64,000 nt of DNA, taken from Ignavibacteriota bacterium (lineage in GTDB: Bacteria > Bacteroidota > Ignavibacteria > UBA10030 > SZUA-254). The DNA is taken from assembly GCA_016212665.1 (NCBI GenBank), contig JACREZ010000040.1, forward strand, positions 24,178-88,177, read 5' to 3'. The notes under the pieces are model-generated. The model did no database searches and was not told the origin of the DNA. It worked only from the letters and a program-made list of their open reading frames with translations. Shown piece by piece: positions 767 through 53,716 of this stretch; the first letter of the stretch is position 1, and each line of letters opens with the position of its first letter. The position numbers and the translations under genes are program-made.

Positions 767-869
767 TACACTCTCAAGTTAGAAGAATGTACCGGTTACG
801 CAATACCCCATTCGTGGTATTTTGTTCGGTGAACTTCTGGTGAAATAAATCCAACAGTATCAAACATCG

Positions 870-1538: not shown

Positions 1539-3847
1539 TTTCTTACGACCGCCACTTTTCCTTTCCCAACCGCGGTACCATCTTTGGAAAACGCGGCGAC
1601 AATGTACACGCCGCTCGCAACAACATTTCCTTCTTCATCCAACCCGTCCCAAAATCCTACTCTGCCACCGGGCGTGGATATTTCTTTTACCAAATTTCCG
1701 GAGACTGTAAATACTTTGAGCGTTGAACCTTCAACGAGTCCGTCAATTGTCAGTTCGCTCGATGATGGAAGTAAAAACGGATTGGGGAATATTTTTAACT
1801 CACCGAACGATGGGACAGGCGCAACGGCAGGAGTTGTAAGCGTGGCAAGCCCTGCCTCCGTTGAGAAATACAACGTTCCCGTATTGTTATCAATGGTCAA
1901 AGAAGAAACTCTGTCATCCGGTAATTTCCCTTGTGTTGATTCGACCGTGAAATGTTCCAACACCGTCGTTCCATCGGGAGACCAGAGATAGACGCCTTGT
2001 TCCGTTGCAACCCACTTTTGATTGAGCGGGTCAACCAAAATATCGTTCACACGTTTTCCGCTCAAAGGATGATACGGAAGAATTCGATACGGAACTGCCG
2101 GGTCAACAATAATATTGATTCCCTGATTCGTACCGACCCATAAACTTCCATCATTATCAATGGCGACCGCAGTAACTTCATTGTCGGTCAATCCGTCGCG
2201 GTCTTTCGTGATGATTCCCCACCCTGTTGATGCGTCAATGCGTCGCGGCAACCGTTTCGTTTCATCATAAAAAACAAGCCCGGGAGAACTGTTTTCCGTT
2301 ACGGAAAGAGAGGTGAACCATTTCGTTCCATGGTTATCCATAATGATATTGGTCAGTATCGGCAATTTCGAACCGGTCGGATAATTTGCATAGCGAAACG
2401 TCCGGGTGCCGGGAGAGTATATCGCGAGCAAATTTCTATCGGCGGCTGAGCGAATGTTAATCCAAGCGTCTCCGCTTCTATCAACAACAACTCCGGTAAC
2501 GACAACAAACGTCCGATTGTTATGTGCGTTCTCCGTGTAAAAAAGCCCGTTTGTTGAATTGAAAATATGTTGGACGGAATTGTTTGCATCGAGATGGACA
2601 ACTCCTTCGCCGAACATGCTCACCCATTTCGAGTTATCGCTTCCGATATCAATCTGATAGGCGTAGCGTGCGCCGTTGAGCGACGGCAATGTTTGCGGAG
2701 TGAATGTTCGCCATGTATCGCCATTAAAACTAATGAATCCTTCGCCGCTTGCCTGTCCCGTACCCGACCAAAAAACGCTTTTGTCATCAACAGCCATTCC
2801 GAAAAATTTATTGACAGGTGGACCGGGAGGAATGATCTTTTGCCAATCTATTCCAAGAGGTCTCAGTAATACCGAAGTGTTAATAAACAAACCGTTATTA
2901 GTTGAACCAAGGACATCCATTTTCCCAATTGATGTTAGTTTTGAAGGGAAGTCGGACGCCAATATTCTGAAGTCTCCACTGGTATAAATCCAATATTCAT
3001 TGTCGGTTAGAAAGAAAATAGAAGGAGTTCCGATTAATCCTAAGTCTGAGTTGGTCGAAAGAGCAGTAATATCTTTGCCGGATGTTTCTGAAAGAGTATT
3101 CCAAGAAACTCCGTTAAAATAAACAATACCAAGAGATGTTGCAGCAAAAAGTGTATCATTGGAACAAGTAATATCCCGAATGGCGATTGAAGGTAAACCG
3201 TTGTTCATCACCTGCCATGAACTTGGCTCGGAAGGATTCGGATTTGTCATCGGCGTCGAAGCAATTCCGCTTGACGTCCCTACCCAAAACCTGTTATTGA
3301 AAATTTCAAACGAGGTGACTTTGCCTGTGAGTTGTGGTGAAGTTCCGAATCGACGGTAGGAATCACCAAATTCATTTCGTGAAACGAAAAACACACTTAC
3401 GCCAATATCGGAAAGTATGAACAACGAATCACCTGAAACATAGAATGAATTGATTCGCTTTGTCGGTTCATCCGTCATCGAAGCAATTCCGGCAACATAA
3501 TTCCATTCACGGTGGCGCGGGTTAAAGGATTGAACAAATCCGTTCGAGGCGCCAATCCAGATATTTCCGTTTTCATCCGCAGTTATTGCGGTCAAATCAA
3601 TTGTGCGCAAACCTTCGGAGGTTGTAAACTGCTCAAAATTTTTATCGGTAAGATTGTAGGAGAAAAGCCCGCCGCTTGTTGCCGCCCAAACGACATTATC
3701 AACTACTACAACATCCCGCACTTCTTTTTTTGATGTGTAGTTTTTCCATTTGCCGATGTTTCCGCCGTATGAACATTCAACAAAAAATAGGATGAACAGA
3801 ACTGCGCTGAAAGGACGCAGATACGCGAGCAAGAAGTTATATTTCAT
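1535..3847 (-). CDS. Secreted beta-propeller (Reg_prop-repeat) protein with T9SS C-terminal sorting domain
   Basis: N-terminal signal peptide 'MKYNFLLAYLRPFSAVLFILFF'. Many 'WxATxxGLxxY' propeller repeats. C-terminus 'LKIFPNPFLLPSSSELTIDGL…GVYIVAAFSKDG' is a T9SS CTD. Confidence 0.75.
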   Translation of the reverse strand: MKYNFLLAYLRPFSAVLFILFFVECSYGGNIGKWKNYTSKKEVRDVVVVDNVVWAATSGGLFSYNLTDKNFEQFTTSEGLRTIDLTAITADENGNIWIGASNGFVQSFNPRHREWNYVAGIASMTDEPTKRINSFYVSGDSLFILSDIGVSVFFVSRNEFGDSYRRFGTSPQLTGKVTSFEIFNNRFWVGTSSGIASTPMTNPNPSEPSSWQVMNNGLPSIAIRDITCSNDTLFAATSLGIVYFNGVSWNTLSETSGKDITALSTNSDLGLIGTPSIFFLTDNEYWIYTSGDFRILASDFPSKLTSIGKMDVLGSTNNGLFINTSVLLRPLGIDWQKIIPPGPPVNKFFGMAVDDKSVFWSGTGQASGEGFISFNGDTWRTFTPQTLPSLNGARYAYQIDIGSDNSKWVSMFGEGVVHLDANNSVQHIFNSTNGLFYTENAHNNRTFVVVTGVVVDRSGDAWINIRSAADRNLLAIYSPGTRTFRYANYPTGSKLPILTNIIMDNHGTKWFTSLSVTENSSPGLVFYDETKRLPRRIDASTGWGIITKDRDGLTDNEVTAVAIDNDGSLWVGTNQGINIIVDPAVPYRILPYHPLSGKRVNDILVDPLNQKWVATEQGVYLWSPDGTTVLEHFTVESTQGKLPDDRVSSLTIDNNTGTLYFSTEAGLATLTTPAVAPVPSFGELKIFPNPFLLPSSSELTIDGLVEGSTLKVFTVSGNLVKEISTPGGRVGFWDGLDEEGNVVASGVYIVAAFSKDGTAVGKGKVAVVRK

Positions 3848-3976
3848 ATTACGCTAACAGAAATTATTTTCAATGGAACAATCATTTTCCCGGATTCCAA
3901 ACGTCGAACAGTTCAGTTCACCAGAGCAAACCGGAAAGAATGTTTAATTAGTATCTATCGTGCGTAACAAGGTTCA

Positions 3977-4453
3977 TTATTTTTTCTTGGATAATTTTTT
4001 GAAAACGTCGGCAAGTTCAATAGCGGCGAGTGCTGATTCCCAACCTTTGTTTCCGCTCTTTGCGCCTGCCCGTTCGATTGCCTGTTCGAGCGAGTCGGTT
4101 GTCAGAACTCCGAACACGACCGGTGTTTGCGATGTGAGAGCGATGCGGTTGATACCGGCGCTGACAGCATTCGCAATGTATTCAAAGTGCGGAGTTTCTC
4201 CGCGTATGACACAGCCGAGACAAATGACGGCGTCATACTTATCACTCTGCACAAGTTGAAGCGCAAGTTGCGGGATTTCAAATGCGCCGGGGCATCGAAC
4301 AACGTCAACGGCATTTTCTTTCGCTCCGTGACGCGTCAGGCAATCGAGCGCGCCATCGAGCAATCGCCCGGTAATAAATTCATTAAACCGGCTGACAACA
4401 ATTCCGAAGCGGAACGGTGTCGCCGAGAGATTTCCTTCAATTATATTTGCCAT
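3977..4453 (-). CDS. ribH: 6,7-dimethyl-8-ribityllumazine synthase
   Basis: '[20 protein letters not shown]…[11 protein letters not shown]…[19 protein letters not shown]' is the canonical RibH sequence. Start placed at the ATG 'MANIIEG'; the tracked GTG at 4471 abuts the upstream stop. Confidence 0.9.
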
Positions 4454-41037: not shown

Positions 41038-41784
41038 TTAAAGAAATAATCCATCAACGAAAGCAATTTGATACCCGAAGAAAATTCCGAAACAAATACT
41101 CAGAATTCCCGAAACTAATCTCACGCCATTATTCAGTTTGTGCGATGCTTTTGCTGAGAGAAAAAAAGGAACACTAATGAGCGCACTCATCATCAACATC
41201 CCGAGCATCGAACCAACACCGAACGTTCCGATGTACAACAACCCCATTGCTGTTGAGGGAATCGTTGATAAAATCAGAAGCATCAACGCGCCGCTTCCTG
41301 CAAGTCCGTGAACCATCCCGATATACAACGGCTTCTTACTTCCCGCGATCAAACTGAGGCGCGTAAAAAGAGGAAGCTCGTGATGATGTTTCTCTTGTAT
41401 CTGATTTTCGGAATGGTTGTGAACATGCAAGTGAATGTGTCTGCGCCCTTCATGTTCGTGTTGATGGATGTGAACTGAATCTCCTCGTGCAACTTTTTTG
41501 ATTGCGATAATGCCAAGAATGATAAGCATGAGCGCAACAACAAATTCCATAACATGAGAAAATGTTTCGGGAAGTTGAATATCAAACAGAAGAATGACAA
41601 GTCCGACGGCAAGAAGTGAAGCAGTGTGCCCGATTCCCCACAGCGCACCGACAAGCGATGAACTCAGCATGTTTTTTCGCTCACTGACTATTGCCGCGAC
41701 CGCGACGAGATGGTCGGTATCAAGCGCGTGCTTGACGCCAAGTCCGAAGCCGAGAGCGAGAATGGAAAATGTTTCTGTTGCCAT
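41038..41784 (-). CDS. NicO-family nickel/cobalt transporter (RcnA-like, His-rich loop)
   Basis: Signature 'HALDTDHL' and a central His-rich loop 'HIHQHEHEGRRHIHLHVHNHSENQIQEKHHHE'. Start set at 'MATETFS' to avoid a large overlap with the divergent trmH. Confidence 0.75.
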   Translation of the reverse strand: MATETFSILALGFGLGVKHALDTDHLVAVAAIVSERKNMLSSSLVGALWGIGHTASLLAVGLVILLFDIQLPETFSHVMEFVVALMLIILGIIAIKKVARGDSVHIHQHEHEGRRHIHLHVHNHSENQIQEKHHHELPLFTRLSLIAGSKKPLYIGMVHGLAGSGALMLLILSTIPSTAMGLLYIGTFGVGSMLGMLMMSALISVPFFLSAKASHKLNNGVRLVSGILSICFGIFFGYQIAFVDGLFL

Positions 41785-41876
41785 TATTGTTGATTCGATT
41801 GCGAACCAATATACAAACATCGGAATTGAGAGAAAAGAAATTGCTTCTCTCATCCGAATACTGTACTTTTCTACCC

Positions 41877-42719
41877 GTGAAAGAAACGAACATACAATCG
41901 GTCAACTCATTGGATTTGCCTGAGTTGCAACCGTACAGAACGCTCCGCCGTCCGCTTGAACATATTCAACAGGGAATTTTCGTCGCGGAAGGAGAAAAAG
42001 TTGTGAGACGTTTACTCGCCTCCAATCTCTCCATTATTTCATTATTGATGACTCCCGAATGGCTCGATGCATTATCAACCGACTCACAACTAACTACTCA
42101 CCATTCACCAATCACTGTTTACCTTGCTGACCACAAACTTGTCGAGACCATCGTCGGCTACAATCTCCACCAAGGTATCATGGCGGTTGCGAGAGTTCCT
42201 GAAAATCCGACGCTCGAATCATTAATGAATACAATCCCGTCACCGTTTCTCCTCGTCGCGCTCGACGGACTTGTTAACTCGGAAAACATCGGCGTCATTG
42301 TAAGAAACTGCGCAGCGTTCGGAGTTCAGGGAATCATCGTCGGTGAAACATCAAGCAGTCCGTATTTGCGGCGCGCTGTAAGAAACTCAATGGGAACGGT
42401 GTTCAAAATTCCCGTCGTTCATGTTCTTCACTTAGCGGAGACTTTGACAACTCTTCAACAGAAATATTCAACAACAGTTATCGCCGCGCATCCGCATGAA
42501 CAGTCGTCAATTCATCAAACAGACTTATCTCAAAATACTTGCATTGTGTTCGGACATGAAGGGCTTGGCATCTCGAAAGAAATTCTCGATGTCTGCTCAA
42601 AGCATGTTGCAATCCCGATGGAGAATGAAACTGATTCGCTGAACGTTTCAAGTGCGAGCGCTGTGTTTTTATATGAAGCACATAAGCAAAGAGCTAAGGG
42701 CGTAGAGTGTAGGGCGTAG
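41877..42719 (+). CDS. TrmH/SpoU-family RNA 2'-O-methyltransferase
   Basis: 'LVALDGLVNSENIGVIVRNCAAFGVQGIIV…CIVFGHEGLGIS' is the SPOUT knot motif set. Start is uncertain: GTG at 41877 is chosen, and the tracked ATG at 41769 would overlap the divergent gene. Confidence 0.75.
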   Translation: MKETNIQSVNSLDLPELQPYRTLRRPLEHIQQGIFVAEGEKVVRRLLASNLSIISLLMTPEWLDALSTDSQLTTHHSPITVYLADHKLVETIVGYNLHQGIMAVARVPENPTLESLMNTIPSPFLLVALDGLVNSENIGVIVRNCAAFGVQGIIVGETSSSPYLRRAVRNSMGTVFKIPVVHVLHLAETLTTLQQKYSTTVIAAHPHEQSSIHQTDLSQNTCIVFGHEGLGISKEILDVCSKHVAIPMENETDSLNVSSASAVFLYEAHKQRAKGVECRA

Positions 42720-42720
42720 A

Positions 42721-43302
42721 GTGATAAATATTTCTATTGAAAAAATAAAAAAAGCCGTGTCTCAACATCAACGGCAAGTTGCCACAACGTCTACCGAGAA
42801 CGAAATTATTCGTGCGTCCGTTCTTGTGCCGTTGGTGGTTCTCAACAATGAATTGCATGTATTGCTGACCGTGAGAACGCACGAAGTAGAAACGCACAAA
42901 GGACAAATTTCATTCCCCGGCGGCATGTGTGATGAAAAAGATGCGAACGAAACAGAAACGGCGTTGCGTGAAGCGAAAGAAGAAATCGGATTGCCCAAAT
43001 CTTCTGTTGAAATTCTCGGTATTCTTGATGATTTTGTAACGCCAACCGGCTTTTTGATTACTCCCGTTGTTGGCTACATCCAATCGCTCCCGCTATTGAA
43101 ACCAAATCCCGAAGAAGTTGCCGAGGTGTTGTTTGTCCCTCCTTCCTTTTTTGCCGATGAACAAAACGGGAGAACAGAAGAGCGAACGGTGAACGGAAAA
43201 CATTTGAAAGTTTGGTTTTTCGATTATCAACAGCATGCTATTTGGGGGGCGACCGCGGGAATAATCAAACATTTTCTCAACATTATTCAAGATAAGCCAT
43301 GA
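42721..43302 (+). CDS. NUDIX hydrolase (CoA-pyrophosphatase-like)
   Basis: Nudix box 'GGMCDEKDANETETALREAKEEIGL'. Confidence 0.8.
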   Translation: MINISIEKIKKAVSQHQRQVATTSTENEIIRASVLVPLVVLNNELHVLLTVRTHEVETHKGQISFPGGMCDEKDANETETALREAKEEIGLPKSSVEILGILDDFVTPTGFLITPVVGYIQSLPLLKPNPEEVAEVLFVPPSFFADEQNGRTEERTVNGKHLKVWFFDYQQHAIWGATAGIIKHFLNIIQDKP

Positions 43303-44579
43303 ACACAACTCGAAGGACATTCGTAAAGAAGGTTGTCGGTGGAATTTCCGGCAGTCTTCTCCTCTCCAATCTTTTTGATTCATCACAGGCGTTTTCCTTT
43401 CCTGAAATTGGTCAGGACATCGAACCGGAGAATGAACAGTTTTGGAAACTTGTGCGGGAACAATTTCCTCTTACTCACGAACGAATCTATTTCAATAACG
43501 GGACGATTGGACCATCACCGTATATCGTTCGTGAAGCAGTGAAAGCGGCAATTGATGATTTGGACAGGCGGGGCGAGTACGGCGGATGGGAAGTTGCGCG
43601 CACAAAACTCGCTGAGTTTGTTCGCGTAAAGGAATCGGAAATTTCTCTCACGCACAACACAACCGAAGGAATCAACGTTGTTGTGTGGGGACTTCCTCTC
43701 AAACGGGGCGACGAGGTGATTCTTACAACGCACGAACATGTCGGCAACGCATTGCCGTGGCTTAACCGTTCGAAGGTTGACGGCATCGTCATCAAAACAT
43801 TTCAACCCGCACAAACTGTTTCGGAAAATCTTAACCGCATCAACGATTTGCTCACGAAGAAAACCCGCGTCATCGCGATTCCACACATTACCTGCACCAC
43901 CGGACAAGTTTTTCCGGCAAAAGAAATTTCTCAACTCGGACACGACAAAGGATTGTTCGTCTGTTTCGATGGAGCGCACGGGCCGGGGATGACGAATCTG
44001 AACCTTGCGGAAATTGGTTGCGACACATATTCGGCGTGCAGTCATAAATGGCTTTGCGGACCGAAAGGAACCGGATTTTTGTATGTGAGAGAAGGATTGC
44101 TCGAAACTCTTCAACCGAAATTCGTCGGCGGTTACACCGACCTCGGATGGGATTTGACGACGAACCCGATTGAGTTCAAAGGATTTGTTCCAACCGCGCA
44201 TCGGTACGATTACGGAACACAGAATGCTGCGCTGTACATCGGTGTTGCTTCTGCTGTGGATTTCTTTTCCAAGATTGGAGTAGAGAATATTGTCCGACGC
44301 GGAAACTCCCTCGCTTCAACTCTTCAACAAAAACTTCTTGAACTTGGGGACAAGATTGAAATGCTTACACCAACAGAAGAACAATCACGCGGTTCGATGA
44401 TTGGTTTTTGTTTGAAAAATATCCCGTACGACAAATTCGGAGAACACGCATCGAAGAAAGGATTTCGTATTCGCCTTGTTCCGGAAAGTCATTTGAATTC
44501 GATTCGCGTGTCAACACATCTTTATAATAATTTCGATGAAGTGGAGAGGTTTGTGGAAGCGGTGAAGGAAGTCGCTTAA
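43299..44579 (+). CDS. Class-V aminotransferase-fold PLP enzyme with twin-arginine (Tat) signal
   Basis: 'MNTTRRTFVKKVVGGISGSLLL' is a Tat motif (T-R-R-x-F-V-K). PLP-lysine context 'SACSHKWLCGPKGTGFLYV'. Cysteine-desulfurase/epimerase-like fold. Confidence 0.8.
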   Translation: MNTTRRTFVKKVVGGISGSLLLSNLFDSSQAFSFPEIGQDIEPENEQFWKLVREQFPLTHERIYFNNGTIGPSPYIVREAVKAAIDDLDRRGEYGGWEVARTKLAEFVRVKESEISLTHNTTEGINVVVWGLPLKRGDEVILTTHEHVGNALPWLNRSKVDGIVIKTFQPAQTVSENLNRINDLLTKKTRVIAIPHITCTTGQVFPAKEISQLGHDKGLFVCFDGAHGPGMTNLNLAEIGCDTYSACSHKWLCGPKGTGFLYVREGLLETLQPKFVGGYTDLGWDLTTNPIEFKGFVPTAHRYDYGTQNAALYIGVASAVDFFSKIGVENIVRRGNSLASTLQQKLLELGDKIEMLTPTEEQSRGSMIGFCLKNIPYDKFGEHASKKGFRIRLVPESHLNSIRVSTHLYNNFDEVERFVEAVKEVA

Positions 44580-44618
44580 CTTCGATATGAGATTTGGGAT
44601 ATATGCCCGCGAATCAAA

Positions 44619-45227
44619 CTACGGTGCAAGCCGTTGTATTTTCCACTCTCCACTCTCTTGCAAAACACATTCAACTCTGTCATGCAAACGCCCTTCACGT
44701 CCCTGCCAAAACTCCATTCGATTTGGTTTGACGAGATAGCCGCCCCAATGTTCAGGACGAGAAACTGCTGCTCCTTCAAATTTCTTTTCCGCTTCTGAGT
44801 ACAATCGTTCTAATTCTTCCCTGCTTGAAACGACTTCGCTTTGCGCGGAGATGAATGCACTCAATTGACTGTTTCTTGGTCGCGTCTGAAAATACGCGTC
44901 TGAATGTTCAGCAGAAACTTTTTCCACCGTTCCTTCGATTCTCACTTGCCGTTCCAACGGCTGCCAATAAAACAATAACGCAACATTCGGATTTTGTTCA
45001 AGTTCTTTTCCTTTCCTGCTGTTATAGTTGGTGAAGAACATAAATCCATGTTCGTTCACTTCTTTCAACAACACCATCCGCGACGATGGTTTTCCGTCTA
45101 TTGAAACGGTTGCGAGCGACATCGCTTCGGGCATGGCGATGCCGGATGTTTGTGCTTCTTCAAACCAATTCTTGAATTGCTGAATCGGATTCGGATGAAT
45201 AGTTGTTGTATCGAGGGAGTGGTTCAT
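44619..45227 (-). CDS. pdxH: Pyridoxamine 5'-phosphate oxidase
   Basis: '…LERQVRIEGTVEKVSAEHSDAYFQTRPRNSQLSAFIS…FWQGREGRLHDR' carries the canonical PdxH C-terminal motifs. Confidence 0.9.
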   Translation of the reverse strand: MNHSLDTTTIHPNPIQQFKNWFEEAQTSGIAMPEAMSLATVSIDGKPSSRMVLLKEVNEHGFMFFTNYNSRKGKELEQNPNVALLFYWQPLERQVRIEGTVEKVSAEHSDAYFQTRPRNSQLSAFISAQSEVVSSREELERLYSEAEKKFEGAAVSRPEHWGGYLVKPNRMEFWQGREGRLHDRVECVLQESGEWKIQRLAP

Positions 45228-45412
45228 TGTTTAACTTCTTATTATAGTGGATGTTATCAAAACAAATCTATGATTGAATCATGCCAATGGCAATATATCA
45301 AATAAGAAAATAAATCAAGAAAAACTGAACAACTCTCTTGACCGTTTCCCAAATTTTTCTTAGGTTCAATCAGTCGAACGGATTCATCATTTCCCGCTCG
45401 CGAAAACTACGA

Positions 45413-46480
45413 ATGGATGTGTTGACGTTAATATTGCTCGGGGCGGTTGTCATTCTTGTTGTTATTCTCCTTTCGCGGAAACCCACTCCAGCGCAAACAG
45501 ATTATTCCCAAACTCTTCAACTTATGCAACAACAGGTCGAAGCGTTGCGCGGCGACATGCGAACAAGTTTACAGCATGTTTCGGAAAATCTTAATCAACA
45601 ACTCAACAGTGTTACGCAACAACTGCAAACGCAAACCACTTCCGTCGGCAGCCGTCTCGATAATGCGACGCGGGTGATAGGCGATGTTCAGAAAAATCTC
45701 GGGCAACTCGGACAGGCGACGCAGGAGATTAAAGAGTTGGGACAAAGCGTTTCCAAGTTGGAAGAACTGCTTCGCGCTCCGAAACTTCGCGGCGGTTTGG
45801 GCGAATTGCTTCTCGAAGATTTGCTGAAACAGGTGTTACCGTCGGAACATTTTGAAATGCAATACAAATTCAAAAACGGACAGACGGTTGATGCAATCAT
45901 TCGGACATCGGAAGGAATCGTTCCGGTGGATTCAAAATTTCCGCTCGAAAATTTCAGAAAATATTATGAAACATCAACCGAAAGCGAGAAGAAACAGTTT
46001 CAGAAAACATTTCTCAGCGATGTGAAGAAACATATCGAAGCCATTGCAGGGAAATATATCCTTCCGGATGAAGGAACCTTTCCGTTTGCGTTGATGTATA
46101 TTCCTGCAGAGAATATTTATTATGAAGTCATCATCAAAGCCGAAGGCGCAGACGTGTATCAACTTGCGTTAAGCAACAATGTTGTGCCGGTTTCGCCGAA
46201 CAGTTTCTACGCGTACTTACAGGTGATTGCTCTTGGCTTGCGCGGATTAAAAATCGAACAGAGCGCAAAACAGATTTTGAACACACTCGGTCGTTTGCAA
46301 GGCGACATCGGAAAAGTGCGCGATGCGTTCGAGACGCTTGGTGCGCATCTCAACAACGCGCACAACAAATACGACGAAGCAGACAAACGGCTTTCACTAT
46401 TCGAAAACAAATTGGAAGGAATTGCAGAACGAACCAACACCAATGAACAATCAGAATCGAATTACCAATTGTTACGCTGA
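45413..46480 (+). CDS. rmuC: DNA recombination protein RmuC
   Basis: N-terminal TM helix, long coiled coil, and a C-terminal RmuC nuclease-like domain ('VDAIIRTSEGIVPVDSKFPLENF'). Confidence 0.85.
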   Translation: MDVLTLILLGAVVILVVILLSRKPTPAQTDYSQTLQLMQQQVEALRGDMRTSLQHVSENLNQQLNSVTQQLQTQTTSVGSRLDNATRVIGDVQKNLGQLGQATQEIKELGQSVSKLEELLRAPKLRGGLGELLLEDLLKQVLPSEHFEMQYKFKNGQTVDAIIRTSEGIVPVDSKFPLENFRKYYETSTESEKKQFQKTFLSDVKKHIEAIAGKYILPDEGTFPFALMYIPAENIYYEVIIKAEGADVYQLALSNNVVPVSPNSFYAYLQVIALGLRGLKIEQSAKQILNTLGRLQGDIGKVRDAFETLGAHLNNAHNKYDEADKRLSLFENKLEGIAERTNTNEQSESNYQLLR

Positions 46481-46531
46481 CCGCAGTGCGGTCAGTCGCT
46501 CTTTACCAACTACAATTACAAGGAAATTTCT

Positions 46532-47164
46532 ATGTATCTACAAGTTCATCCTGATAATCCTCAAGGTCGCCACATCGAACACGCGGTTGACGTGTTAAAG
46601 CATGGCGGCGTCATCATTTATCCGACCGATACCGTGTATGGCATCGGCTGTAGCATTTACAGCACTCATGCAATTGAGCGGATTTATCAAATCAAACAAC
46701 AAGACCCGGCGAAGCCGTTCAGTTTTGTCTGTTCCGATTTGAGCCACATCAGCGAGTATGCGAAAGTATCGAACCCCGCGTTCCGGTTGATGAAGCATCT
46801 CGTGCCGGGACCGTTCACGTTTGTACTTCCAGCAAGCCGGCTGAAACAACTTCCGAAATCGCTCATCAGCAAACGAAAGACGGTCGGCATCCGCGTACCG
46901 AACAATAAAATTTGTATCGAGATTGTGAAGCAACTCGGTCATCCGATTCTCAACGCGAGCGTGGACGGCACGAACGAACAACTGCCGAACGACCCGGAAC
47001 TCATCAAACGCGCGTACGACGAGCGAGTGGATGTAATTCTCGATGGCGGAATAAGCGGGCTCGAACTTTCGACCATTCTGGATTTGACGGAAGACCAACC
47101 ACTTGTTGTCCGCGAAGGAGCGGGGGACATCAGCAATTTAATCATTACCGAACAAGTGGCGTGA
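46532..47164 (+). CDS. tsaC: L-threonylcarbamoyladenylate synthase (YrdC/Sua5/TsaC family)
   Basis: 'GGVIIYPTDTVYGIGCSIYSTHAIERIYQIKQQDPAKPFS' is the YrdC fold signature. Confidence 0.85.
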   Translation: MYLQVHPDNPQGRHIEHAVDVLKHGGVIIYPTDTVYGIGCSIYSTHAIERIYQIKQQDPAKPFSFVCSDLSHISEYAKVSNPAFRLMKHLVPGPFTFVLPASRLKQLPKSLISKRKTVGIRVPNNKICIEIVKQLGHPILNASVDGTNEQLPNDPELIKRAYDERVDVILDGGISGLELSTILDLTEDQPLVVREGAGDISNLIITEQVA

Positions 47165-47173
47165 GGAACAACG

Positions 47174-47614
47174 TTGCGTTTCTTTGACGAAACACCTGCG
47201 ATGGGAATCCTGCGGAATTGTGTCTATGCAATCATTATCATGGCGCTCTATTCGTTCACGATGATGTTGCTCGGACACTTCGACGCGGGGTTCCTTGCCG
47301 CGTATGGTTTGGTCGGAATCGGATTTTCATTTTTCGGGTGGGGAGGCGAGCGGCTTTGGTACGCCACGATTGCAAATTATTTCAATCAACCGCATCGTTG
47401 GTACGCCATCCTCTCCCATGTTCCGCTCTGGGGAATGTTTGGCGGTATGAGTTACACGATTGCGCTTCTCATTTCTAAAAATTTTTCTTTATTATTGCTT
47501 GATGAAATACCTGTGAAAAATCTGTTCTTCACAGGCGCCGCGATTGGGGCGCTTATTCAATACATTCTGTACCTGCTTGATGTACGAATCAAACAACAAA
47601 AAACTATAAACTAA
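47174..47614 (+). CDS. Hypothetical integral membrane protein
   Basis: Four predicted hydrophobic helices; 10 nt downstream of tsaC. Confidence 0.45.
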   Translation: MRFFDETPAMGILRNCVYAIIIMALYSFTMMLLGHFDAGFLAAYGLVGIGFSFFGWGGERLWYATIANYFNQPHRWYAILSHVPLWGMFGGMSYTIALLISKNFSLLLLDEIPVKNLFFTGAAIGALIQYILYLLDVRIKQQKTIN

Positions 47615-47621
47615 AAACATT

Positions 47622-47813
47622 ATGACAAAAAGCGAACAACATTCGATGGTGGAGTCACTGAGAGAATACTCACACAAGATGAAGGGAAAAGATTACGATG
47701 AATTTGAAGTCCTCCGTAAGCGCGACCGCGACGACGAAGACTTCGATTCCATTTCACGAAACAAACTCACCGAGTTGTTTGTGAAGTATGTGCCGGAGAG
47801 ATTTAGAAGATAA
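47622..47813 (+). CDS. Hypothetical small acidic protein; its 3' end is duplicated at 49577–49690
   Basis: 63 codons. The final ~38 codons recur about 90% identical and in frame 1.76 kb downstream. Confidence 0.45.
   Translation: MTKSEQHSMVESLREYSHKMKGKDYDEFEVLRKRDRDDEDFDSISRNKLTELFVKYVPERFRR
47700..47813 (+). repeat. Direct repeat copy 1 (flank of hipBST cassette)
   Basis: 'GAATTTGAAGTCCTCCGTAAGCGCGACCGCGACGACGAAGACTTCGATTCCATTTCACGAAACAAACTCACCGAGTTGTTTGTGAAGTATGTGCCGGAGAGATTTAGAAGATAA'. Confidence 0.8.
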
Positions 47814-47858
47814 CGTTCTCGTTCCTACGGTATGCGGAGTGTGAGAACAAGAACAAGT

Positions 47859-48866
47859 TTATCCGTTCTCTGTATTCAAATAATTCCTTTTCGTTCGATA
47901 CATCAACAAATATCCACGTTTGCTTGGTTCATCCAAAAAGGAACGATTTGTCAGCGTTACAACCATGCGTTGTTCCTCCAAGAAAGGAATTAACAATTTT
48001 TCAATCCTGCCTTCTGTTACTCCAATACGTTTTCCGAATTCAATAAAATCCGCTTTGGATGGATGTCCGCTCTTACCTCGGTAACGTTTTGCATCGGCAA
48101 ACAATCCTTTACTCAAAGCAAAATCAGAATCGTCCACATGCAGTCTTGTATTGATTACATCATACGCAGGGCTGAGAAGGTAATCACCTTTCGAGGATTC
48201 GAGAAGCGAAATGTTTTTCAAGTGTGCATCTCCGTTCGAGAACAAATAGTTGAACACTACTAACAAGAAAAATTTTTCTATTTCCACGCGCCACGCAGGG
48301 ACGTATTGTTGTATCAGGAATCCAATCTCTTCGTAACTGAACTCATACTTGAAATTCGCGCCTGCATTATCTTTCGTTTTTCCAGCAAGCGAGGCAAAAT
48401 CTTCTTTCCCTCGTTTTCTTCCATTATCATCCACATCAAACCGCTTGGTGATGTAAGCGTGTGTGCCATCTTTGAAAAATATCATAGCATTTTCAGCGGT
48501 GGTTATTCCATACACTTGCTTTGCGATTTGCATGGTCAGATGTTCGTTTGCCGGGACCTGAGTAACATTCTTCAAATCTCTCGGAATCGGTTTCAGGATG
48601 TATGTTCCTTGTTCGCCTTCGTTCGTCAACCGCAACACATTTTTCTCTAAGATGAAACTCAACTTTTCCTGAACGCCTGAGATAGAGATGCGTTTACGAT
48701 TATCTCTGAACTGCTCAGCCACCTCTTCGTTTTGTTCCGGCGCGTCGTAGGGCAATACATGGCTTACTTTCTTCCCATGAAAGAGATTCCGCAAACAACC
48801 CGGACTGTAGGTAGAAAATCCTTCTGCCAATGTTCCGGGACAATATGGTATCTGCACTCCGCTCAT
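47859..48866 (-). CDS. hipT: HipT-type toxin kinase (HipA C-terminal kinase domain, 335 aa)
   Basis: Gly-rich loop with the 'SIS' motif ('KRISISGVQEKLSF') and catalytic 'FSNGDAHLKNISLL'. Length matches HipT of tripartite HipBST systems. Confidence 0.85.
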   Translation of the reverse strand: MSGVQIPYCPGTLAEGFSTYSPGCLRNLFHGKKVSHVLPYDAPEQNEEVAEQFRDNRKRISISGVQEKLSFILEKNVLRLTNEGEQGTYILKPIPRDLKNVTQVPANEHLTMQIAKQVYGITTAENAMIFFKDGTHAYITKRFDVDDNGRKRGKEDFASLAGKTKDNAGANFKYEFSYEEIGFLIQQYVPAWRVEIEKFFLLVVFNYLFSNGDAHLKNISLLESSKGDYLLSPAYDVINTRLHVDDSDFALSKGLFADAKRYRGKSGHPSKADFIEFGKRIGVTEGRIEKLLIPFLEEQRMVVTLTNRSFLDEPSKRGYLLMYRTKRNYLNTENG

Positions 48867-49192
48867 TGCATCGCAATCGGTTTTACCGTAACGGCTCCGA
48901 TTGTATCGTATTGTGCCGTTGCCATCAGCAGACCAAAATTATCTTCTTCATCAATTTTCAGATGTGTACATTGCAATTTCCTGTTCACCCCCTCGCTCAA
49001 CATGTTGAAGAAATACGGAAACAAAATTTCGCTCCGGTATTCCTGTTGAGTCTTTGGAAGCGTTACACTGATTGCCGGTTTGCTGTTGTCGTTGAAGTAG
49101 GCATCATCATAGCGGAAAACAAAATGATGCCGGTCGTCCTCCGCCAGAATACCTGCAAATATTCCGTTGCGATATACGTTTGCCTGTCTCAT
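48863..49192 (-). CDS. hipS: HipS (HipA N-terminal-domain homologue; antitoxin of HipBST systems)
   Basis: 109 aa, 'VYRNGIFAGIL…FRYDDAY…' is a HipA_N/couple_hipA fold. 4-bp ATGA overlap with hipT. Confidence 0.8.
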   Translation of the reverse strand: MRQANVYRNGIFAGILAEDDRHHFVFRYDDAYFNDNSKPAISVTLPKTQQEYRSEILFPYFFNMLSEGVNRKLQCTHLKIDEEDNFGLLMATAQYDTIGAVTVKPIAMQ

Positions 49193-49196
49193 GGAA

Positions 49197-49427
49197 TTAC
49201 AGTTTTCCCGCTTTCCCCGCAGGCAGATTCATGACTTCAAGTTTCAATTCCATGCCGAGCACTTCTGCTAATTTGTTCAAGACATCTAACGAAGGATTGC
49301 CCTGACCTCTCTCCAATTTATACAACGTGTTCGTGCTGATGTTGGCTAACTCTGCAAGATGCGGCTGAGTGATTCCAAGTTCTTTTCTCCGGCGCTTTAT
49401 CGTTTCACCGATATATTTGGCTAACAT
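49197..49427 (-). CDS. hipB: HipB (XRE-family HTH protein)
   Basis: 'IKRRRKELGITQPHLAELANISTNTLYKLERGQGNPSLDVLNKLAEVLG' is an XRE HTH. Start set at the internal ATG; 4 nt upstream of hipS. Confidence 0.8.
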   Translation of the reverse strand: MLAKYIGETIKRRRKELGITQPHLAELANISTNTLYKLERGQGNPSLDVLNKLAEVLGMELKLEVMNLPAGKAGKL

Positions 49428-49505
49428 TATAGTGTGATTTTTTGAGCAAATGTAATAAGAAAAGCCTGACTTTGCAAGTAAAATCACAGTATAGTGTGAT
49501 TTAAT
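49428..49505. promoter_or_regulatory. Putative hipBST operator/promoter region
   Basis: 'TGTGATTTT'…'AAAATCACA' inverted repeat (49433–49441 / 49481–49489) and duplicated 'TAGTGTGATT' boxes (49430, 49493) directly upstream of hipB. Confidence 0.5.
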
Positions 49506-49576
49506 TACCGTGGGGAAGCGGTTAATATGTTACGCTTAAAAAGAATGTTGAGGGGGAAGAGGAATAATATTAGGTC

Positions 49577-49690
49577 GAATTTGAAGTCCTCCGCAAGCGA
49601 AACAGCGACGACGAAGACTTCGATTCCATTTCACGCAACAAACTCACCGAGTTGTTTGTGAAGTACGTGCCTGAGAGATTCGGGCGATAA
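49577..49690 (+). repeat. Direct repeat copy 2 (diverged 3' fragment of the 47622–47813 gene)
   Basis: 'GAATTTGAAGTCCTCCGCAAGCGAAACAGCGACGACGAAGACTTCGATTCCATTTCACGCAACAAACTCACCGAGTTGTTTGTGAAGTACGTGCCTGAGAGATTCGGGCGATAA'. Confidence 0.8.
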
Positions 49691-49883
49691 ATTTACTTCA
49701 AAAAGACTGGCTCCTGCTAATACTGATTTTTCAATCAGGAATTCTGTAATTAATGGTCTTTACATACGGGAGATTACCTGAGACGAAACAAGTGTGGTTA
49801 AGATGAAGCGAATGGTTGATTTTTGTCAAGTAAAGTAGTAACTTCTCTCAAAATGAACGCTTCACTTTTTTGCTAAAGATATT

Positions 49884-52511
49884 ATGAAAAAGATTCTAAG
49901 CATCATATGTTTCTTTGTTTTTACTTGGTTGCCTTCTAACGGACAAGAATGGGAATGGCAGTATCCAAAACCGCAGGGAAATTGGCTCAACAGTGTTTGG
50001 GTTTTCGATTCAAATAATGTAGTAACTGTAGGAGGGAACGGAACGGTATTGAAAACCACGGATAAAGGAGTAACTTGGAGAATTCTTTACCAAATAGATA
50101 GTGCTTCTGCTAACCTAACATCGCTTCAATTCATTAATCGGTGTGTAGGATGGTGCGTAGGAGGTAAGTCATTATTCCAAACATCAGATGGAGGACAAAC
50201 ATGGTTTCGCCATACAAATAATTTCGGCATTAATCTATCCTCTGTGTTTTTTATTGATGATATTCACGGATGGGTGTCAGGAGAAAATACCGTATGGCGC
50301 ACTATAAATGGTGGTGTGACATGGGATTCGAGTATAATTTCAGATTATTACACTATCTCGTCAATCTACTTTGTTAACGAACGATTGGGATGGGTGGCAT
50401 TACAGACAAAAGTTTATAAAACAACCAATGGAGGTTCTACATGGTTTCTCTCATTGAGTAGTAACGATGATTATGATTATTCCGTGTTCTTTGCTGACAG
50501 TTTGCATGGATGGGTAGGTGGTAAACGAGGGCAATGGTTTGCTGCTCATTTATTAACCACTGATGGTGGTACAAGCTGGATTGATCGTTCATGGGATGAG
50601 GTTATCTATGATCGTCTTCAGTCAATACAATTTGTTAATTCTATGCATGGATGGGCAATGGCGTCGAATTATCTCTATGAATCTGTTGATGGTGGTTGGA
50701 CGTGGGATTCTGTGGCTTCGATCGGTTCACTGAGTTCCCTCCATGTCACACGGGATGGATCTCATCTATGGGCAGTGGGTGGCCAAGGGTTTATTACCTC
50801 CTCAACAAATGGTGGTATCGAGTGGAACAATATTTCAAGTCATGCTGGTAGTTCGTTCGATGTAAAATTTTGTAATCCGTTAGTTGGGTGGGCGGTTGGT
50901 GGTGGGATACTGAAAACAACTAATGGTGGAAAAGAATGGTTTCCACAATATCAACCCGGCGGTACATTACATTCACTCTTTGTCCTTGATACACTTACTG
51001 CATGGTGTGTTGGTGAAGAATGGTCTGTGGTTTATCATACGACTGATGGGGGCGAACAATGGACAAAACAGTATGCTCCACAAAATTTTCGTGGCTGGTA
51101 CAAGGTCTTTTTTCTTAATAAGAATCTTGGTTGGCTCGCTGGAAGATTTGGTTCGTATGCAAAAACAACCGATGGAGGAAATCAATGGATAGCGATTAAT
51201 TCAGGAACCCCGGATGATTTAGGCTCGGTTTTTTTTCTTGATTCTTTGAATGGGTGGCTGGTAGGAAATGGAGGAAGTATTATGAAATCAACTGACGGCG
51301 GAATGACATGGACTGAAGTATCTACGGTCGCTTTTCCGCATCAGTTGTCAGATATCTCCTTTACATCAAATCAAATTGGATGGGTTTCAGGAACAAGTAC
51401 TCTCTTGAAAACGACTAATGGTGGAGTAAGTTGGTTTGACATCAATTCACTTCACATTACATCTTGGCAACATAAATTTCTCAGTGATGATGTCGGTTGG
51501 GCTGTTGGTCCGCAAGGTATTATTGCTACTGTTGACGGTGGAAAAAAATGGCAGTTTCTTCCGAATTCACCAAGCGGCTATGGCGTTGATATTTTCGATA
51601 GTGTTTCTATCTGGGTTGCTTGTGGTGCAGGCATTCTTCATACACCTGCGTCATCAGTAATCCAACCGCCCTATGTACAATGTTTCATACCCGGTCGCGG
51701 AGTACTTTTTTCAACAGGATGGAATTTGATATCGTTACCATTGGAAACCTCTGAAAGAAACCCGTCAATTGTTTTTCCTAATATCTCATCAAAAGCATAT
51801 CGGTACAATAAGGGTTACCAAATAACGGACACGCTGGAAATTGGAAAAGGGTATTGGGTAAAATCACAGGATGAACGTTTTCATTTTTTACACGGAGATA
51901 GTATGGAATCTGTTATGGTAGAGTTGTCCCAAGGATGGAATCTGATAGGAGGAATTACACAACAGATAAATGTCAGTAATGTAATTCAAGATTCGGCTGA
52001 CCTTATCATATCTCCATTTTATGAATACACGTCTGGCACGTATCAACTATCGAACGTACTTTCTCCAGGAAAAGGTTATTGGATAAAGACTCAAAGAAAT
52101 GGATCTATCACGCTCGCTTCTGATACAGGTTCGATCTTACTACAATCATTGGTCCGTTATCTTCCGATTAATCCGCTGAGTTTTCATGAATTACCCCCAT
52201 CACCACCATGGCAAATAGAAGATTTTCCTTCACCGCCTGAGATTACAGTTGCATTAAGGCTTGAGCAAAGTTACCCCAATCCATTCAACTCTTTGACAGA
52301 AATTAAATACACTCTTGCTAAAGAAATGTATGTTACGTTGAAGGTGTATAATGTATTGGGAGAAGAAATCATTACTCTCGTTGAGGGAGTAGTAAGTGCA
52401 GGAGATAAGCATGTACAATGGGATGCATCTCATGTTCCAAGCGGGATCTATTTTTACAAACTCACATCAGGTATATCTTTTGATGTAAAAAAGGCAGTTA
52501 TCTTGAAATAG
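49884..52511 (+). CDS. BNR/Ycf48-like repeat protein with T9SS C-terminal sorting domain
   Basis: Signal peptide. More than 12 'TTDGGxTW/ TTNGGxTW' sialidase-type BNR propeller repeats. A ~130-aa 'GWNLIS…GKGYWVK…GWNLIGG…GKGYWIK' module. CTD 'LEQSYPNPFNSLTEIKYTL…GIYFYKL'. Confidence 0.75.
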   Translation: MKKILSIICFFVFTWLPSNGQEWEWQYPKPQGNWLNSVWVFDSNNVVTVGGNGTVLKTTDKGVTWRILYQIDSASANLTSLQFINRCVGWCVGGKSLFQTSDGGQTWFRHTNNFGINLSSVFFIDDIHGWVSGENTVWRTINGGVTWDSSIISDYYTISSIYFVNERLGWVALQTKVYKTTNGGSTWFLSLSSNDDYDYSVFFADSLHGWVGGKRGQWFAAHLLTTDGGTSWIDRSWDEVIYDRLQSIQFVNSMHGWAMASNYLYESVDGGWTWDSVASIGSLSSLHVTRDGSHLWAVGGQGFITSSTNGGIEWNNISSHAGSSFDVKFCNPLVGWAVGGGILKTTNGGKEWFPQYQPGGTLHSLFVLDTLTAWCVGEEWSVVYHTTDGGEQWTKQYAPQNFRGWYKVFFLNKNLGWLAGRFGSYAKTTDGGNQWIAINSGTPDDLGSVFFLDSLNGWLVGNGGSIMKSTDGGMTWTEVSTVAFPHQLSDISFTSNQIGWVSGTSTLLKTTNGGVSWFDINSLHITSWQHKFLSDDVGWAVGPQGIIATVDGGKKWQFLPNSPSGYGVDIFDSVSIWVACGAGILHTPASSVIQPPYVQCFIPGRGVLFSTGWNLISLPLETSERNPSIVFPNISSKAYRYNKGYQITDTLEIGKGYWVKSQDERFHFLHGDSMESVMVELSQGWNLIGGITQQINVSNVIQDSADLIISPFYEYTSGTYQLSNVLSPGKGYWIKTQRNGSITLASDTGSILLQSLVRYLPINPLSFHELPPSPPWQIEDFPSPPEITVALRLEQSYPNPFNSLTEIKYTLAKEMYVTLKVYNVLGEEIITLVEGVVSAGDKHVQWDASHVPSGIYFYKLTSGISFDVKKAVILK

Positions 52512-52624
52512 TAACCTACACAATTCTTTGTATAACTTTCCTATTTTATAGTATCGGATTAAAGATCAAAGAAATTTCTTACATTCTTCCTCATTCATTT
52601 GTTTGATTTCAGAAAAGGAAACCT

Positions 52625-53716
52625 ATGCCCAAAACATTGAAACGAGTCGGAATTCTCACCGGTGGCGGAGACTGCCCCGGACTCAACGCCGTCATCCGAA
52701 GCATCGCCAAACCGGCGATGTCGTTCTTCAATGCAAAAGTCATCGGTATCGTGGATGGCTTCGAAGGATTTGTCGAAGGAAAAATGCGTGAGTTGACAAA
52801 ACTCGACATTCTCGGAATTGTCAATCTCGGCGGAACAATTCTCGGCACATCGAACAAAGGCGACCCGTTCCACTATCCCGTCGAAGGACCGAAAGGAATT
52901 ACCACGCTCGATTACTCGGAACACGCGCTCATCAATTATCAGAAATGGGAACTCGATGCGCTCTTTGCCATCGGCGGCGACGGGACGATGAACATCGCAT
53001 ACAAATTTTCCAAGATGGGAATGAACATCATCGGCGTTCCGAAAACAATTGATAACGACCTCGAAGCAACCGACGTAACGTTCGGGTACGATTCCGCTCT
53101 TTCGATTGCTACGGAAGCGATTGACCGTCTCCACACTACCGCGTCTGCGCATCACCGCGTCATGGTGATTGAAGTGATGGGACGCTACGCAGGATGGATT
53201 GCACTCGGCGCAGGACTTGCCGGCGGCGCGGATATTATCCTCATTCCTGAAATTCCATTCAAGTGGGATTCGATTTTTGAAACGGTTCTCAAGCGAAGTA
53301 AAGGCGCGCGGTTCAGCATCGTGTGCGTTGCGGAAGGTGCGAAACCGGAAGACGGCCAGATTGTCGTCAAAGAACATGATACAAAGCGAACCGACCCGTT
53401 GCGTCTCGGCGGTATCGGCGACCTTGTTGCACGGAAAATCACCGAACATACCGGATTGGAAACACGCACGACTGTGCTTGGTCACTTACAGCGCGGCGGA
53501 AGTCCGACAGCATACGATAGAATTCTCGCCACGAAATTCGGTTCGATGGCGTTGCAAGCGGCATCGGAAGGAAAATTCGGACAGATGGTCAGTCTGCGCG
53601 GGCGCGATGTTGAATTAGTGAAACTCGAAGATGCCATTAGTCGTCAGCGACTTGTGCCGTTGGATTCGCAGTTGATATTGACAGCGAGAGCGGTGGGAAC
53701 GAGTTTTGGTGATTAA
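52625..53716 (+). CDS. pfkA: 6-phosphofructokinase (PfkA family)
   Basis: 'GILTGGGDCPGLNAVIR', 'IGGDGT', 'PKTIDNDL', 'MGRYAG', 'VLGHLQRGGSPTAYDR'. Confidence 0.9.
   Translation: MPKTLKRVGILTGGGDCPGLNAVIRSIAKPAMSFFNAKVIGIVDGFEGFVEGKMRELTKLDILGIVNLGGTILGTSNKGDPFHYPVEGPKGITTLDYSEHALINYQKWELDALFAIGGDGTMNIAYKFSKMGMNIIGVPKTIDNDLEATDVTFGYDSALSIATEAIDRLHTTASAHHRVMVIEVMGRYAGWIALGAGLAGGADIILIPEIPFKWDSIFETVLKRSKGARFSIVCVAEGAKPEDGQIVVKEHDTKRTDPLRLGGIGDLVARKITEHTGLETRTTVLGHLQRGGSPTAYDRILATKFGSMALQAASEGKFGQMVSLRGRDVELVKLEDAISRQRLVPLDSQLILTARAVGTSFGD

Follow-up and report, generated by a model that had tools for sequence, protein, structure and literature searches.

A HipBST toxin–antitoxin islet bracketed by diverged copies of a neighbouring gene tail in an Ignavibacteriota genome

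Introduction

In the HipBA toxin–antitoxin (TA) system of Escherichia coli K-12 the toxin, the kinase HipA, is one chain of 440 amino acids (aa), and HipB, a helix-turn-helix (HTH) protein, is the antitoxin and represses through palindromic operators. In the tripartite HipBST modules the N-subdomain of HipA is encoded by a gene of its own, hipS. The modules of Legionella pneumophila (Lpg2368–2370; PDB entries 7VKB, 8EZR and 8EZT) and E. coli O127:H6 (PDB entries 7AB3–7AB5) are the closest described systems to the one reported here, and their mechanism has been treated in PMC6581861, PMC10627512, PMC9325769 and bioRxiv 10.1101/2022.11.26.518041. HipS is the antitoxin in Legionella, where a loop-to-helix switch of the P-loop blocks ATP binding (PMC9325769). 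In E. coli O127, Trp65 of HipS forms a wedge that blocks HipT's Gly-rich loop and is essential to neutralization; many orthologues have this residue, but some do not. Here we describe a hipBST module in a 64,000-nucleotide (nt) stretch of an Ignavibacteriota bacterium (GenBank assembly GCA_016212665.1, contig JACREZ010000040.1, positions 24,178 to 88,177 of the forward strand). This whole stretch is called the window below, and coordinates without a contig label are counted from its first letter.

The module follows the stop codon of a 63-codon gene, here called small63, and a diverged copy of the tail of that gene lies on its far side. It was first noted in a reading of the letters of the window made without database searches (the sequence-only reading). 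The overall explanation that we regard as probable is that of a HipBST TA islet which was inserted long ago, whose repeat was imported by recombination, and which later acquired further cargo while its repeat copies underwent gene conversion.

Results and discussion

The hipBST module

The three genes lie in the same orientation on the minus strand, and both the open reading frames (ORFs) and the domain matches agree with the positions given in the sequence-only reading. hipB (49197–49427) encodes an XRE-family HTH protein of 76 aa (Pfam HTH_3, 9e-15), counted from an ATG at 49427 that agrees with the starts of its homologues. It is separated by 4 nt from hipS (48863–49192), whose product of 109 aa resembles N-subdomain 1 of HipA and is the presumed antitoxin (Pfam Couple_hipA, 6e-20). 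hipS in turn overlaps hipT (47859–48866) by 4 nt, the ATGA at 48863–48866. The 335-aa HipT protein, a Ser/Thr kinase toxin, has a HipA core, and its HipA_C domain (Pfam, 1e-37) spans residues 60–291. In NCBIfam, HipS matches TIGR03071 (couple_hipA) at 7e-27 and HipB matches TIGR03070 (couple_hipB) at 2e-17, the latter under the cut-off of the model.

Among solved structures in the PDB, the Legionella module provides the closest relative of all three proteins. HipT matches HipT(Lp) at 1e-28 (103 bits across about 290 residues), HipT(O127) at 1e-16 and canonical HipA at only 1e-4; HipS matches HipS(Lp) at 4e-11, HI_0666 at 3e-10 and HipS(O127) at 6e-9; HipB matches HipB(Lp) at 2e-6. These best matches bear out the proposal that this is a tripartite module of HipBST type. 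The Legionella module has the same gene order and similar gene sizes, although the sequence similarity is modest and the host belongs to another phylum. That of E. coli O127 is likewise tricistronic, hipB–hipS–hipT with an HTH in HipB, but is more distant. E. coli K-12 HipBA shares the kinase core and its motifs, but differs in having the N-subdomain within the HipA chain.

HipT contains the string KRISISGVQEKL, and within it S61-I62-S63. The sequence-only reading had pointed to this 'SIS' motif of the Gly-rich loop, and the alignment supports it: the three residues are in exact register with S57-I58-S59 of O127 HipT, whose S-psi-S motif occupies positions 57–59 (PMC10627512), such that Ser61 and Ser63 stand in the places of the two serines of the O127 loop. 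In Legionella HipT, by contrast, the loop reads S-V-Q and there is a single phosphoserine, Ser54. The recognizable motifs of the window protein are SISGVQEK (61–68), NGDAHLKN (211–218, with the catalytic Asp213) and PAYD (233–236, with the Mg-binding Asp236). Alignment to HipT(Lp) and HipT(O127) shows the last two to be conserved, and both aspartates are shared with the O127 enzyme.

We fetched 80 related hipBST loci from metagenomes, and residues were counted in 77 of them. The order hipB–hipS–hipT is seen in 72 of the 80, the remaining eight being cut by contig ends, and the SIS loop is present in 73 of the 77. The protein database holds thousands of HipT homologues of about 334 aa at 74–80% identity, from Saprospiraceae, Chitinophagaceae, Flavobacteriales and Ignavibacteria. 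The family is thus a known one with very many members, among which this module is ordinary; judged by its sequence, it is a genuine split-HipA (HipBST) module that is complete and apparently intact.

The combined length of HipS and HipT (109 and 335 aa) is near the 440 aa of E. coli HipA and their domains follow in HipA order, as would be found if a frameshift error in sequencing had cut a single hipA in two at the ATGA junction. The sequence-only reading had singled out this junction for checking. However, in 65 of the 80 independent loci hipS and hipT likewise overlap by these 4 nt and are read in different frames, and in the others the genes are separated by gaps of 1–565 nt. The split is reproduced in a second island-bearing lineage (L005) and in the independent Logan contig L003, both described below, the homologues of about 334 aa are abundant, and in the solved structures HipS and HipT are separate chains. 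As far as sequence data reach, the frameshift reading is already refuted and we assign it next to no probability.

In one of the related loci (L109:5621–5971) an ORF of 116 aa is found between hipS and hipT, and a few other loci have 78–565 nt at this place. We also note that in PADLOC HipT and HipS weakly match (1.6e-6 and 4e-4) the pair of components that make up PDC-M03, a candidate defence system. These matches are only a lead, Hip-like kinase pairs having been flagged as phage-defence candidates.

Neutralization and target

By analogy with the two characterized systems, free HipT would arrest growth by phosphorylating an essential translation factor, and would autophosphorylate within the S61-I62-S63 Gly-rich loop. 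HipS, the detached HipA N-subdomain, would bind beside this loop and keep it in a state incompatible with ATP, and on that ground HipS would be the antitoxin. HipB would be an HTH repressor and, presumably, an enhancer of neutralization.

Three observations weigh against carrying this picture over without change. The first concerns HipS, in which Val69 occupies the column of the Trp65 that is essential in E. coli. This column holds Val in 70 and Ala in five of the 77 relatives, and Trp in none; on these alignments the missing Trp is a trait of the subgroup and not of the whole family. Legionella HipS has an aliphatic residue, Ile, at the same position, and by comparison with it the window HipS would neutralize without a Trp65 wedge, using Val69. 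The Legionella-type P-loop switch is in our view the more likely template for neutralization in this module. The very large Bacteroidota/Ignavibacteria clade of HipBST thus keeps the SIS loop and never has Trp65, and therefore the E. coli detail of neutralization does not generalize. The next point concerns the target, which is tryptophanyl-tRNA synthetase (TrpS) in E. coli O127 and neither TrpS nor GltX in Legionella, where neither of them rescues. The target of the window HipT cannot be inferred, because the closer HipT(Lp) departs from the O127 enzyme in this respect. Lastly, codon 285 of the hipT orthologue of L005 (L005:2520–3524, minus strand) is an in-frame stop, after which comes a lysine run (T*KKKKK). 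This is either an inactivation of the toxin in that lineage or a homopolymer error in a metagenome-assembled genome (MAG), and there may be at least one lineage in which the module is decaying.

The insertion and its empty sites

Related contigs (labelled L with a number) were retrieved via homologues of the small63 protein. Sites that lack the cassette and have one copy of small63 occur in three lineages (L001, L002 and L004; L124 and L125; L126–L131), and at every one of them small63 is followed by a spacer of 80–100 nt and then by pfk. The contigs L001, L002 and L004, which have 80–86% nucleotide identity to the window, are collinear with it over 41468–47821 and again from 52562, with 15 nt between. 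The BLASTN break points are at 6447 and 6463 in L001, equivalent to 47821 and 52562 of the window, and at 706 in L124, equivalent to 52532. In the distant Ignavibacteria L006, L009, L014 and L020 small63 is directly followed by pfk, and others have an AddB-like nuclease gene between the two. Since the single-copy empty sites extend to distant Ignavibacteria, the empty state is ancestral and the insertion is real, as the sequence-only reading had supposed. As far as these alignments go, they show the ancestral arrangement to be small63–spacer–pfk.

The segment absent from the island-free L001, L002, L004 and L124 covers 47822–52531 by the BLASTN break points. This insert of 4.7 kb comprises hipBST, the second copy of the small63 tail (copy B) and a plus-strand gene (49884–52511) for a BNR/YCF48-like protein of 875 aa with a type IX secretion system (T9SS) sorting domain (Pfam PSII_BNR and Por_Secre_tail). 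The native spacer between small63 and pfk has been displaced to the right end of the insert (52532–52624, plus strand), with pfk starting at 52625 by tblastn; its local alignment to the spacer of L001 scores 71, against a shuffle maximum of 52. In the window this spacer does not adjoin copy B but lies 2.8 kb further on. The sequence-only reading had described a cassette of 1.76 kb bounded by the repeats and had predicted empty sites in which the small gene runs directly into the BNR/T9SS gene. The repeats do bracket hipBST, but the missing segment extends 2.8 kb past copy B. An empty site of the predicted form was not found in the related genomes retrieved: every empty site has small63, spacer and pfk, and the BNR/T9SS gene is part of the variable segment and is absent from all related loci.

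The family-wide nucleotide homology of the module ends at 47871 and 49507, and therefore the recurring unit is hipBST with its promoter and the repeats are local. The hipBST of the window is a 1.75-kb chromosomal 'TA islet' directly after the stop codon of small63. The absence of an integrase or recombinase, remarked on in the sequence-only reading, holds for the entire insert, in that the ORFs in 47814–52531 are hipB, hipS, hipT and the BNR gene only, and both flanks are collinear with those of island-free relatives. The island is slightly AT-richer than its flanks (0.38–0.45 versus 0.43–0.53), a difference that is not diagnostic. A search for RNA families in 47000–53000 gave a single sub-threshold chance match.

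The BNR/T9SS protein is an orphan: among 5.8 billion proteins the best homologue reaches 47% identity, across 65% of its length. Its residues 610–746 show a resemblance, at about 35% identity, to the C-terminal portion of the Amidase_2 protein next to it.

A second lineage, L005, carries the island. L005 is a groundwater Ignavibacteriae MAG of which positions 1–4347 align continuously to window 45346–49680 at 86% identity; the shared span holds the genes for RmuC, Sua5 and a membrane protein, then small63, hipT, hipS, hipB and copy B, and the alignment diverges just after the stop of copy B. The place of the BNR gene is taken in L005 (4444–6692) by genes for Vsr, an uncharacterized protein of 249 aa and a Dcm-type C5 methylase, after which come the spacer and pfk. 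This set looks like a type II restriction-modification unit in which the 249-aa protein is a candidate for the restriction enzyme. Because L005 shares hipBST and copy B, the unit is older than the split of the two species-level lineages. The comparison of the two sequences shows that hipBST and a partial copy of the small63 tail were inserted before the window and L005 diverged, and that the interval from copy B to the spacer later took up cargo that differs between them: the BNR/T9SS gene in the window, and Vsr, the restriction candidate and Dcm in L005. The idea of a private and recent insertion has to be given up, the order small63–hipTSB–copy B being shared with another species-level lineage at about 86% nucleotide identity.

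small63 and the direct repeats

The gene small63 is intact (47622–47813, plus strand) and its last 131 nt form repeat copy A (47683–47813, with a well-conserved core at 47700–47813), so that the gene ends with the repeat and the hipBST cassette follows its stop codon. Copy B (49560–49690, core 49577–49690, plus strand) was delimited, like copy A, by repeat search and alignment. The two copies are 131 nt long, 87% identical and 1877 nt apart, and are the sole long repeat in the region. Their 114-nt cores differ at 11 sites (about 90% identity), in keeping with the description of two in-frame repeats in the sequence-only reading. Copy B is a start-less pseudocopy in frame with the last 37 codons and the stop of small63; it reads EFEVLRKRNSDDEDFDSISRNKLTELFVKYVPERFGR*, and just upstream of it there are in-frame stops and no start codon. 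It alters near-invariant residues, namely D35N, R36S and R62G in the window and D38N and D40Y in the orthologous copy of L005 (4230–4356).

small63 is a real and conserved gene. We found 38 homologues of its protein, every one of them in a metagenome of Ignavibacteria/Bacteroidota, and 19 columns of their alignment are invariant; the protein has no match in Pfam or NCBIfam. In most other Ignavibacteria (L006–L039) small63 is followed after about 10–30 nt by a gene for an AddB-like helicase-nuclease of about 1100 aa (PDDEXK_1, ADDB_N and UvrD_C). The window clade is without this gene after small63, and the neighbour may hint at the function of small63.

We considered whether copy B is the remnant of a full-length small63. 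The sequence 5' of its core is no closer to the 5' part of small63 than are shuffles (P = 0.35 in the window and 0.10 in L005), and this was rejected; we do note that tblastn stretched the match of the L005 copy B back to small63 residue 15. Tandem att sites, with a further repeat where the 4.7-kb insert ends on the right, were rejected likewise, local alignments of copies A and B there being no better than shuffles in both the window and L005. An 8-nt match, AGATTTAG, beside the L005 spacer remains as an unsupported hint only.

Since the source is a MAG and an exact repeat core of 29–31 nt breaks de Bruijn assemblies, the repeat architecture might have arisen as an assembly chimera of two strains. 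However, the independent contig L003 is 100% identical to window 47729–49634, which takes it from the interior of copy A through the cassette into copy B, and in L005, from another MAG, the parts follow one another in the same way. It follows that assembly did not create the arrangement, and we hold a chimera to be extremely improbable. L003 itself is 1906 nt long and has the same 29 nt at both ends (1906 − 1877 = 29), as would result if a de Bruijn assembly had broken at the core that both repeats share, and equally from a circle of 1877 bp.

Gene conversion and the polarity of the repeats

Comparison of the copies within and between genomes shows that the within-genome pairs are the closest, with 11 differences in the window and 16 in L005, as against 23 of 114 between the orthologous B copies. 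In addition, copy B of L005 is a mosaic, with states of the window/L001 type at 9–33 and 69–75 and of the L005 copy A type at 53–60 and 111. Both features point to gene conversion between the copies, and we take these sequence patterns to show that the copies have exchanged sequence in this way.

The sequence-only reading took copy A for a replacement 3' end borne by the incoming element. It is copy A, and not copy B, that resembles the alleles of empty sites: copy A of L005 differs from the empty site L124 at three of 114 sites and copy B at 19, and copy A of the window, which is closest to the empty site L001, differs from it at 12 sites and copy B at 17. Copy A thus has the look of the local allele and copy B that of an outlier, which is the reverse of the proposed polarity, but conversion weakens this inference and the test itself. 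The gene as a whole behaves similarly. Between L005 and L124 small63 is 97% identical, compared with only 82% for the adjacent membrane-protein gene, and small63 falls into two allele classes that cut across flank divergence, a pattern that indicates recent allelic recombination at the locus.

Origin of the repeat

In the window the cores of copies A and B differ by eight synonymous and three non-synonymous changes (synonymous proportion, pS, 0.35; non-synonymous proportion, pN, 0.03). For a single decaying copy about two thirds of the differences would be expected to be non-synonymous (binomial P = 0.007). The differences are mostly synonymous, so most of the divergence would have arisen while both copies were in functional genes, in different genomes. 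We consider that the repeat arose by recombination with DNA bearing a diverged but functional allele of the small63 tail, and that this DNA likely came from a related strain, either in an 'insertion-duplication' by one crossover or in an event that homology facilitated. A dedicated integrase would not be required. Integration into the 3' end of the gene, as put forward in the sequence-only reading, is one possible reading of the footprint, and a homologous single crossover fits it at least as well.

Such an integration would have been carried out by a site-specific element that recombined inside the 3' end of small63 and supplied copy A, the host tail becoming copy B, with the integrase since lost or acting in trans. 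Much of the locus has this appearance, in that direct repeats bracket the cassette and small63 is kept intact, the empty sites have a single repeat copy, and the divergence of A and B is mostly synonymous, as for two once-functional alleles. The arrival of second cargo at nearly the same point, right after the stop of copy B, in two lineages also hints at a preferred site. Against this, there is no integrase in the island or in 6–10 kb of collinear flanks, copy B and the native spacer are 2.8 kb apart, and the second cargo is not bounded by a third repeat. In L005 the copy that shares 97% identity with the small63 of an empty site is A, copy B being the odd one out, and the analogous module of L091 (see below) is oppositely oriented relative to its repeats. 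Because no recombinase and no third repeat are found and the polarity test fails, we rate site-specific integration second, as an unlikely explanation. Duplication in situ, in which slippage, unequal crossing-over or repair duplicated the small63 tail locally, hipBST landed between the copies and copy B decayed, would account for the missing start codon of copy B and its changes at near-invariant residues, and the repeats are old enough for two species to share them. A ratio of 8:3 is nevertheless unlikely for a decaying copy (P = 0.007, and P = 0.001 in L091), and we know of no transposition mechanism that makes target duplications of 75–170 nt. Local duplication and decay is probably not how the repeat originated, and we regard it as improbable.

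Several points also tell against recombinational import of the repeat into an old islet, the explanation that we prefer. The argument from synonymous and non-synonymous changes rests on 11 differences, and conversion from a selected copy A could partly mimic the pattern. Island-positive and island-negative genomes form a near star phylogeny, and some individual lineages may have lost the island. We found neither a donor genome nor a circular form nor a recombinase, and the mechanism of insertion is thus a presumed one.

Repeats at other hipBST loci

The flanks of 61 metagenome loci with enough sequence on both sides (from L044–L123) were surveyed for comparable footprints. Direct repeats of 35–796 nt with 75–93% identity lie on both sides of hipBST in eight of the 61, compared with three of 78 pseudo-cassettes placed in the same contigs and one of 114 in Ignavibacteria loci (four of 192 when pooled). 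Fisher P is 0.002 against the pooled controls, and P is about 0.003–0.01 when a duplicate locus and the 35-nt case are removed, the count of unique loci being approximate. The repeat pairs are specific to their loci, which led us to reject a dispersed element; the pair of L108/L110 has extra partial copies, within the same contigs. tRNA genes were looked for as the repeats in the other repeat-flanked loci and none were found, and an integron cassette was rejected, since the hipBST cassette is not flanked by attC-like inverted repeats and an integrase is absent.

The closest case is L091 (with its relative L101), in which the last 55 or so codons of an MMPL-family transporter gene (165 nt) are repeated beyond hipT. 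The copies differ by 25 synonymous and 14 non-synonymous changes (pS 0.60, pN 0.12, P = 0.001). Relative to these repeats the module is turned the other way round from that of the window. By its sequence L091 is a true and independent parallel to the repeat of the window. The other cases involve intergenic sequence (L067, L086 and L108/L110) or whole duplicated genes (L089 and L096). The flanking repeats are suggestive of, and would fit, a recombinational spread of the modules, in a sample that is small and heterogeneous. Homologues of the module are present on 11 Bacteroidota plasmids, and it has no match in 50,697 phage records.

A more speculative possibility, which we think doubtful, is that the hipBST modules of this clade are non-autonomous cassettes that spread among related genomes by homologous insertion-duplication. 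In such a cycle a module would loop out through its flanking repeats as a circle of about 1.9 kb with one repeat copy, and one crossover within the homologous gene tail would bring it into the chromosome of a relative. This would leave direct repeats of 75–170 nt whose divergence is that of donor and recipient, and the toxin would penalize loss. If true, this would explain the enrichment of repeats, the mostly synonymous differences in two cases, the allele mosaicism and the absent recombinase.

Putative operators and candidate promoter of hipB

The sequence-only reading listed operator-like palindromes upstream of hipB, with the parts TGTGATTTT (49433–49441) and AAAATCACA (49480–49488) and the string TAGTGTGATT twice (49430–49439 and 49492–49501). 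We compared the minus strand upstream of hipB in 67 related loci. The palindromes are conserved in position and co-vary across these loci, which upholds that observation. Two sites can be distinguished in the window. O1 is a palindrome, AAATCACA-N6-TGTGATTT (49481–49502, minus strand), recognized from the sequence and the 67-locus comparison. O2 is an operator-like site, ATCACA-N6-TGTTAG (49421–49438, minus strand), that overlaps the hipB start codon, its right half holding the ATG. A candidate Bacteroidota-type promoter (49447–49477, minus strand) lies between them, with a −33 TTG box (49475–49477), a 20-nt spacer and a −7 box, TAcaTTTG (49447–49454). The TTG/TAnnTTTG pair agrees with the Bacteroides-type promoter consensus. 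Scans for sigma-70 promoters and intrinsic terminators gave nothing meaningful, with fewer matches than in shuffles and none of relevance on the hipB strand.

The order of these elements is fixed in the 67 loci: O1, the adjoining TTG box, the TAnnTTTG box 20 nt on, and then O2. ATCACA stands 11 nt 5' of the hipB ATG in nearly all of them. At the same distance as in the window, 33 of the 67 have a perfect ATCACA-N6-TGTGAT O1, and most others have a near-perfect one. In L107 and L088, O1 and O2 are both replaced by sites of the GAGCA/TGCAC type (110 nt upstream of hipB). A joint change of this kind is what one expects if a single protein reads both sites, and it could be used as a natural specificity switch with which to test recognition by HipB. 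The palindromes look like real operators, and HipB most likely binds two sites of the ATCACA-N6-TGTGAT type, O1 upstream of the −33 box and O2 over the hipB start. These differ from the E. coli hipBA operator, which is TATCC-N8-GGATA.

Significance and comparison with known islands

The module itself adds little to what is known, HipBST having been characterized and the thousands of homologues of near-identical length in this clade being already labelled as HipA-domain proteins. Its modest interest lies in the missing Trp65, the conserved and co-varying operators and the repeat footprint. The fixed two-operator promoter with its co-varying sites amounts to a ready-made specificity code for work on HipB binding, and the footprint is mildly informative about how such modules move. 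Taken as a series (empty; hipBST and repeat; with a restriction-modification unit added; with a surface protein added), the loci show a TA islet seeding a variable region. The locus is evidence for homologous recombination and gene conversion, and not a dedicated integrase, as the forces shaping it.

Two kinds of described element come close to this islet. The 3'-end genomic islands of tRNA, tmRNA and protein genes, and insertion-duplications of the Campbell type, share with it a repeat that keeps the gene intact, a partial copy on the far side and empty sites with a single copy. The window differs from them in having neither an integrase nor a tRNA gene, in repeats that are long (75–170 nt) and only 81–91% identical, and in that its repeat is not at the outer end of the whole variable segment. 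The chromosomal TA genomic islets, such as ccdAB and parE/yiaG in intergenic regions of E. coli (Hayes and Van Melderen, cited in PMC7232551), are likewise TA-only inserts at otherwise collinear intergenic spots, and like the window hipBST they are present or absent among relatives and have no mobility gene. The islet of the window is set apart from these by the diverged 131-nt tail of a neighbouring gene that brackets it and by its position as the nucleus of a variable region with a changing second cargo.

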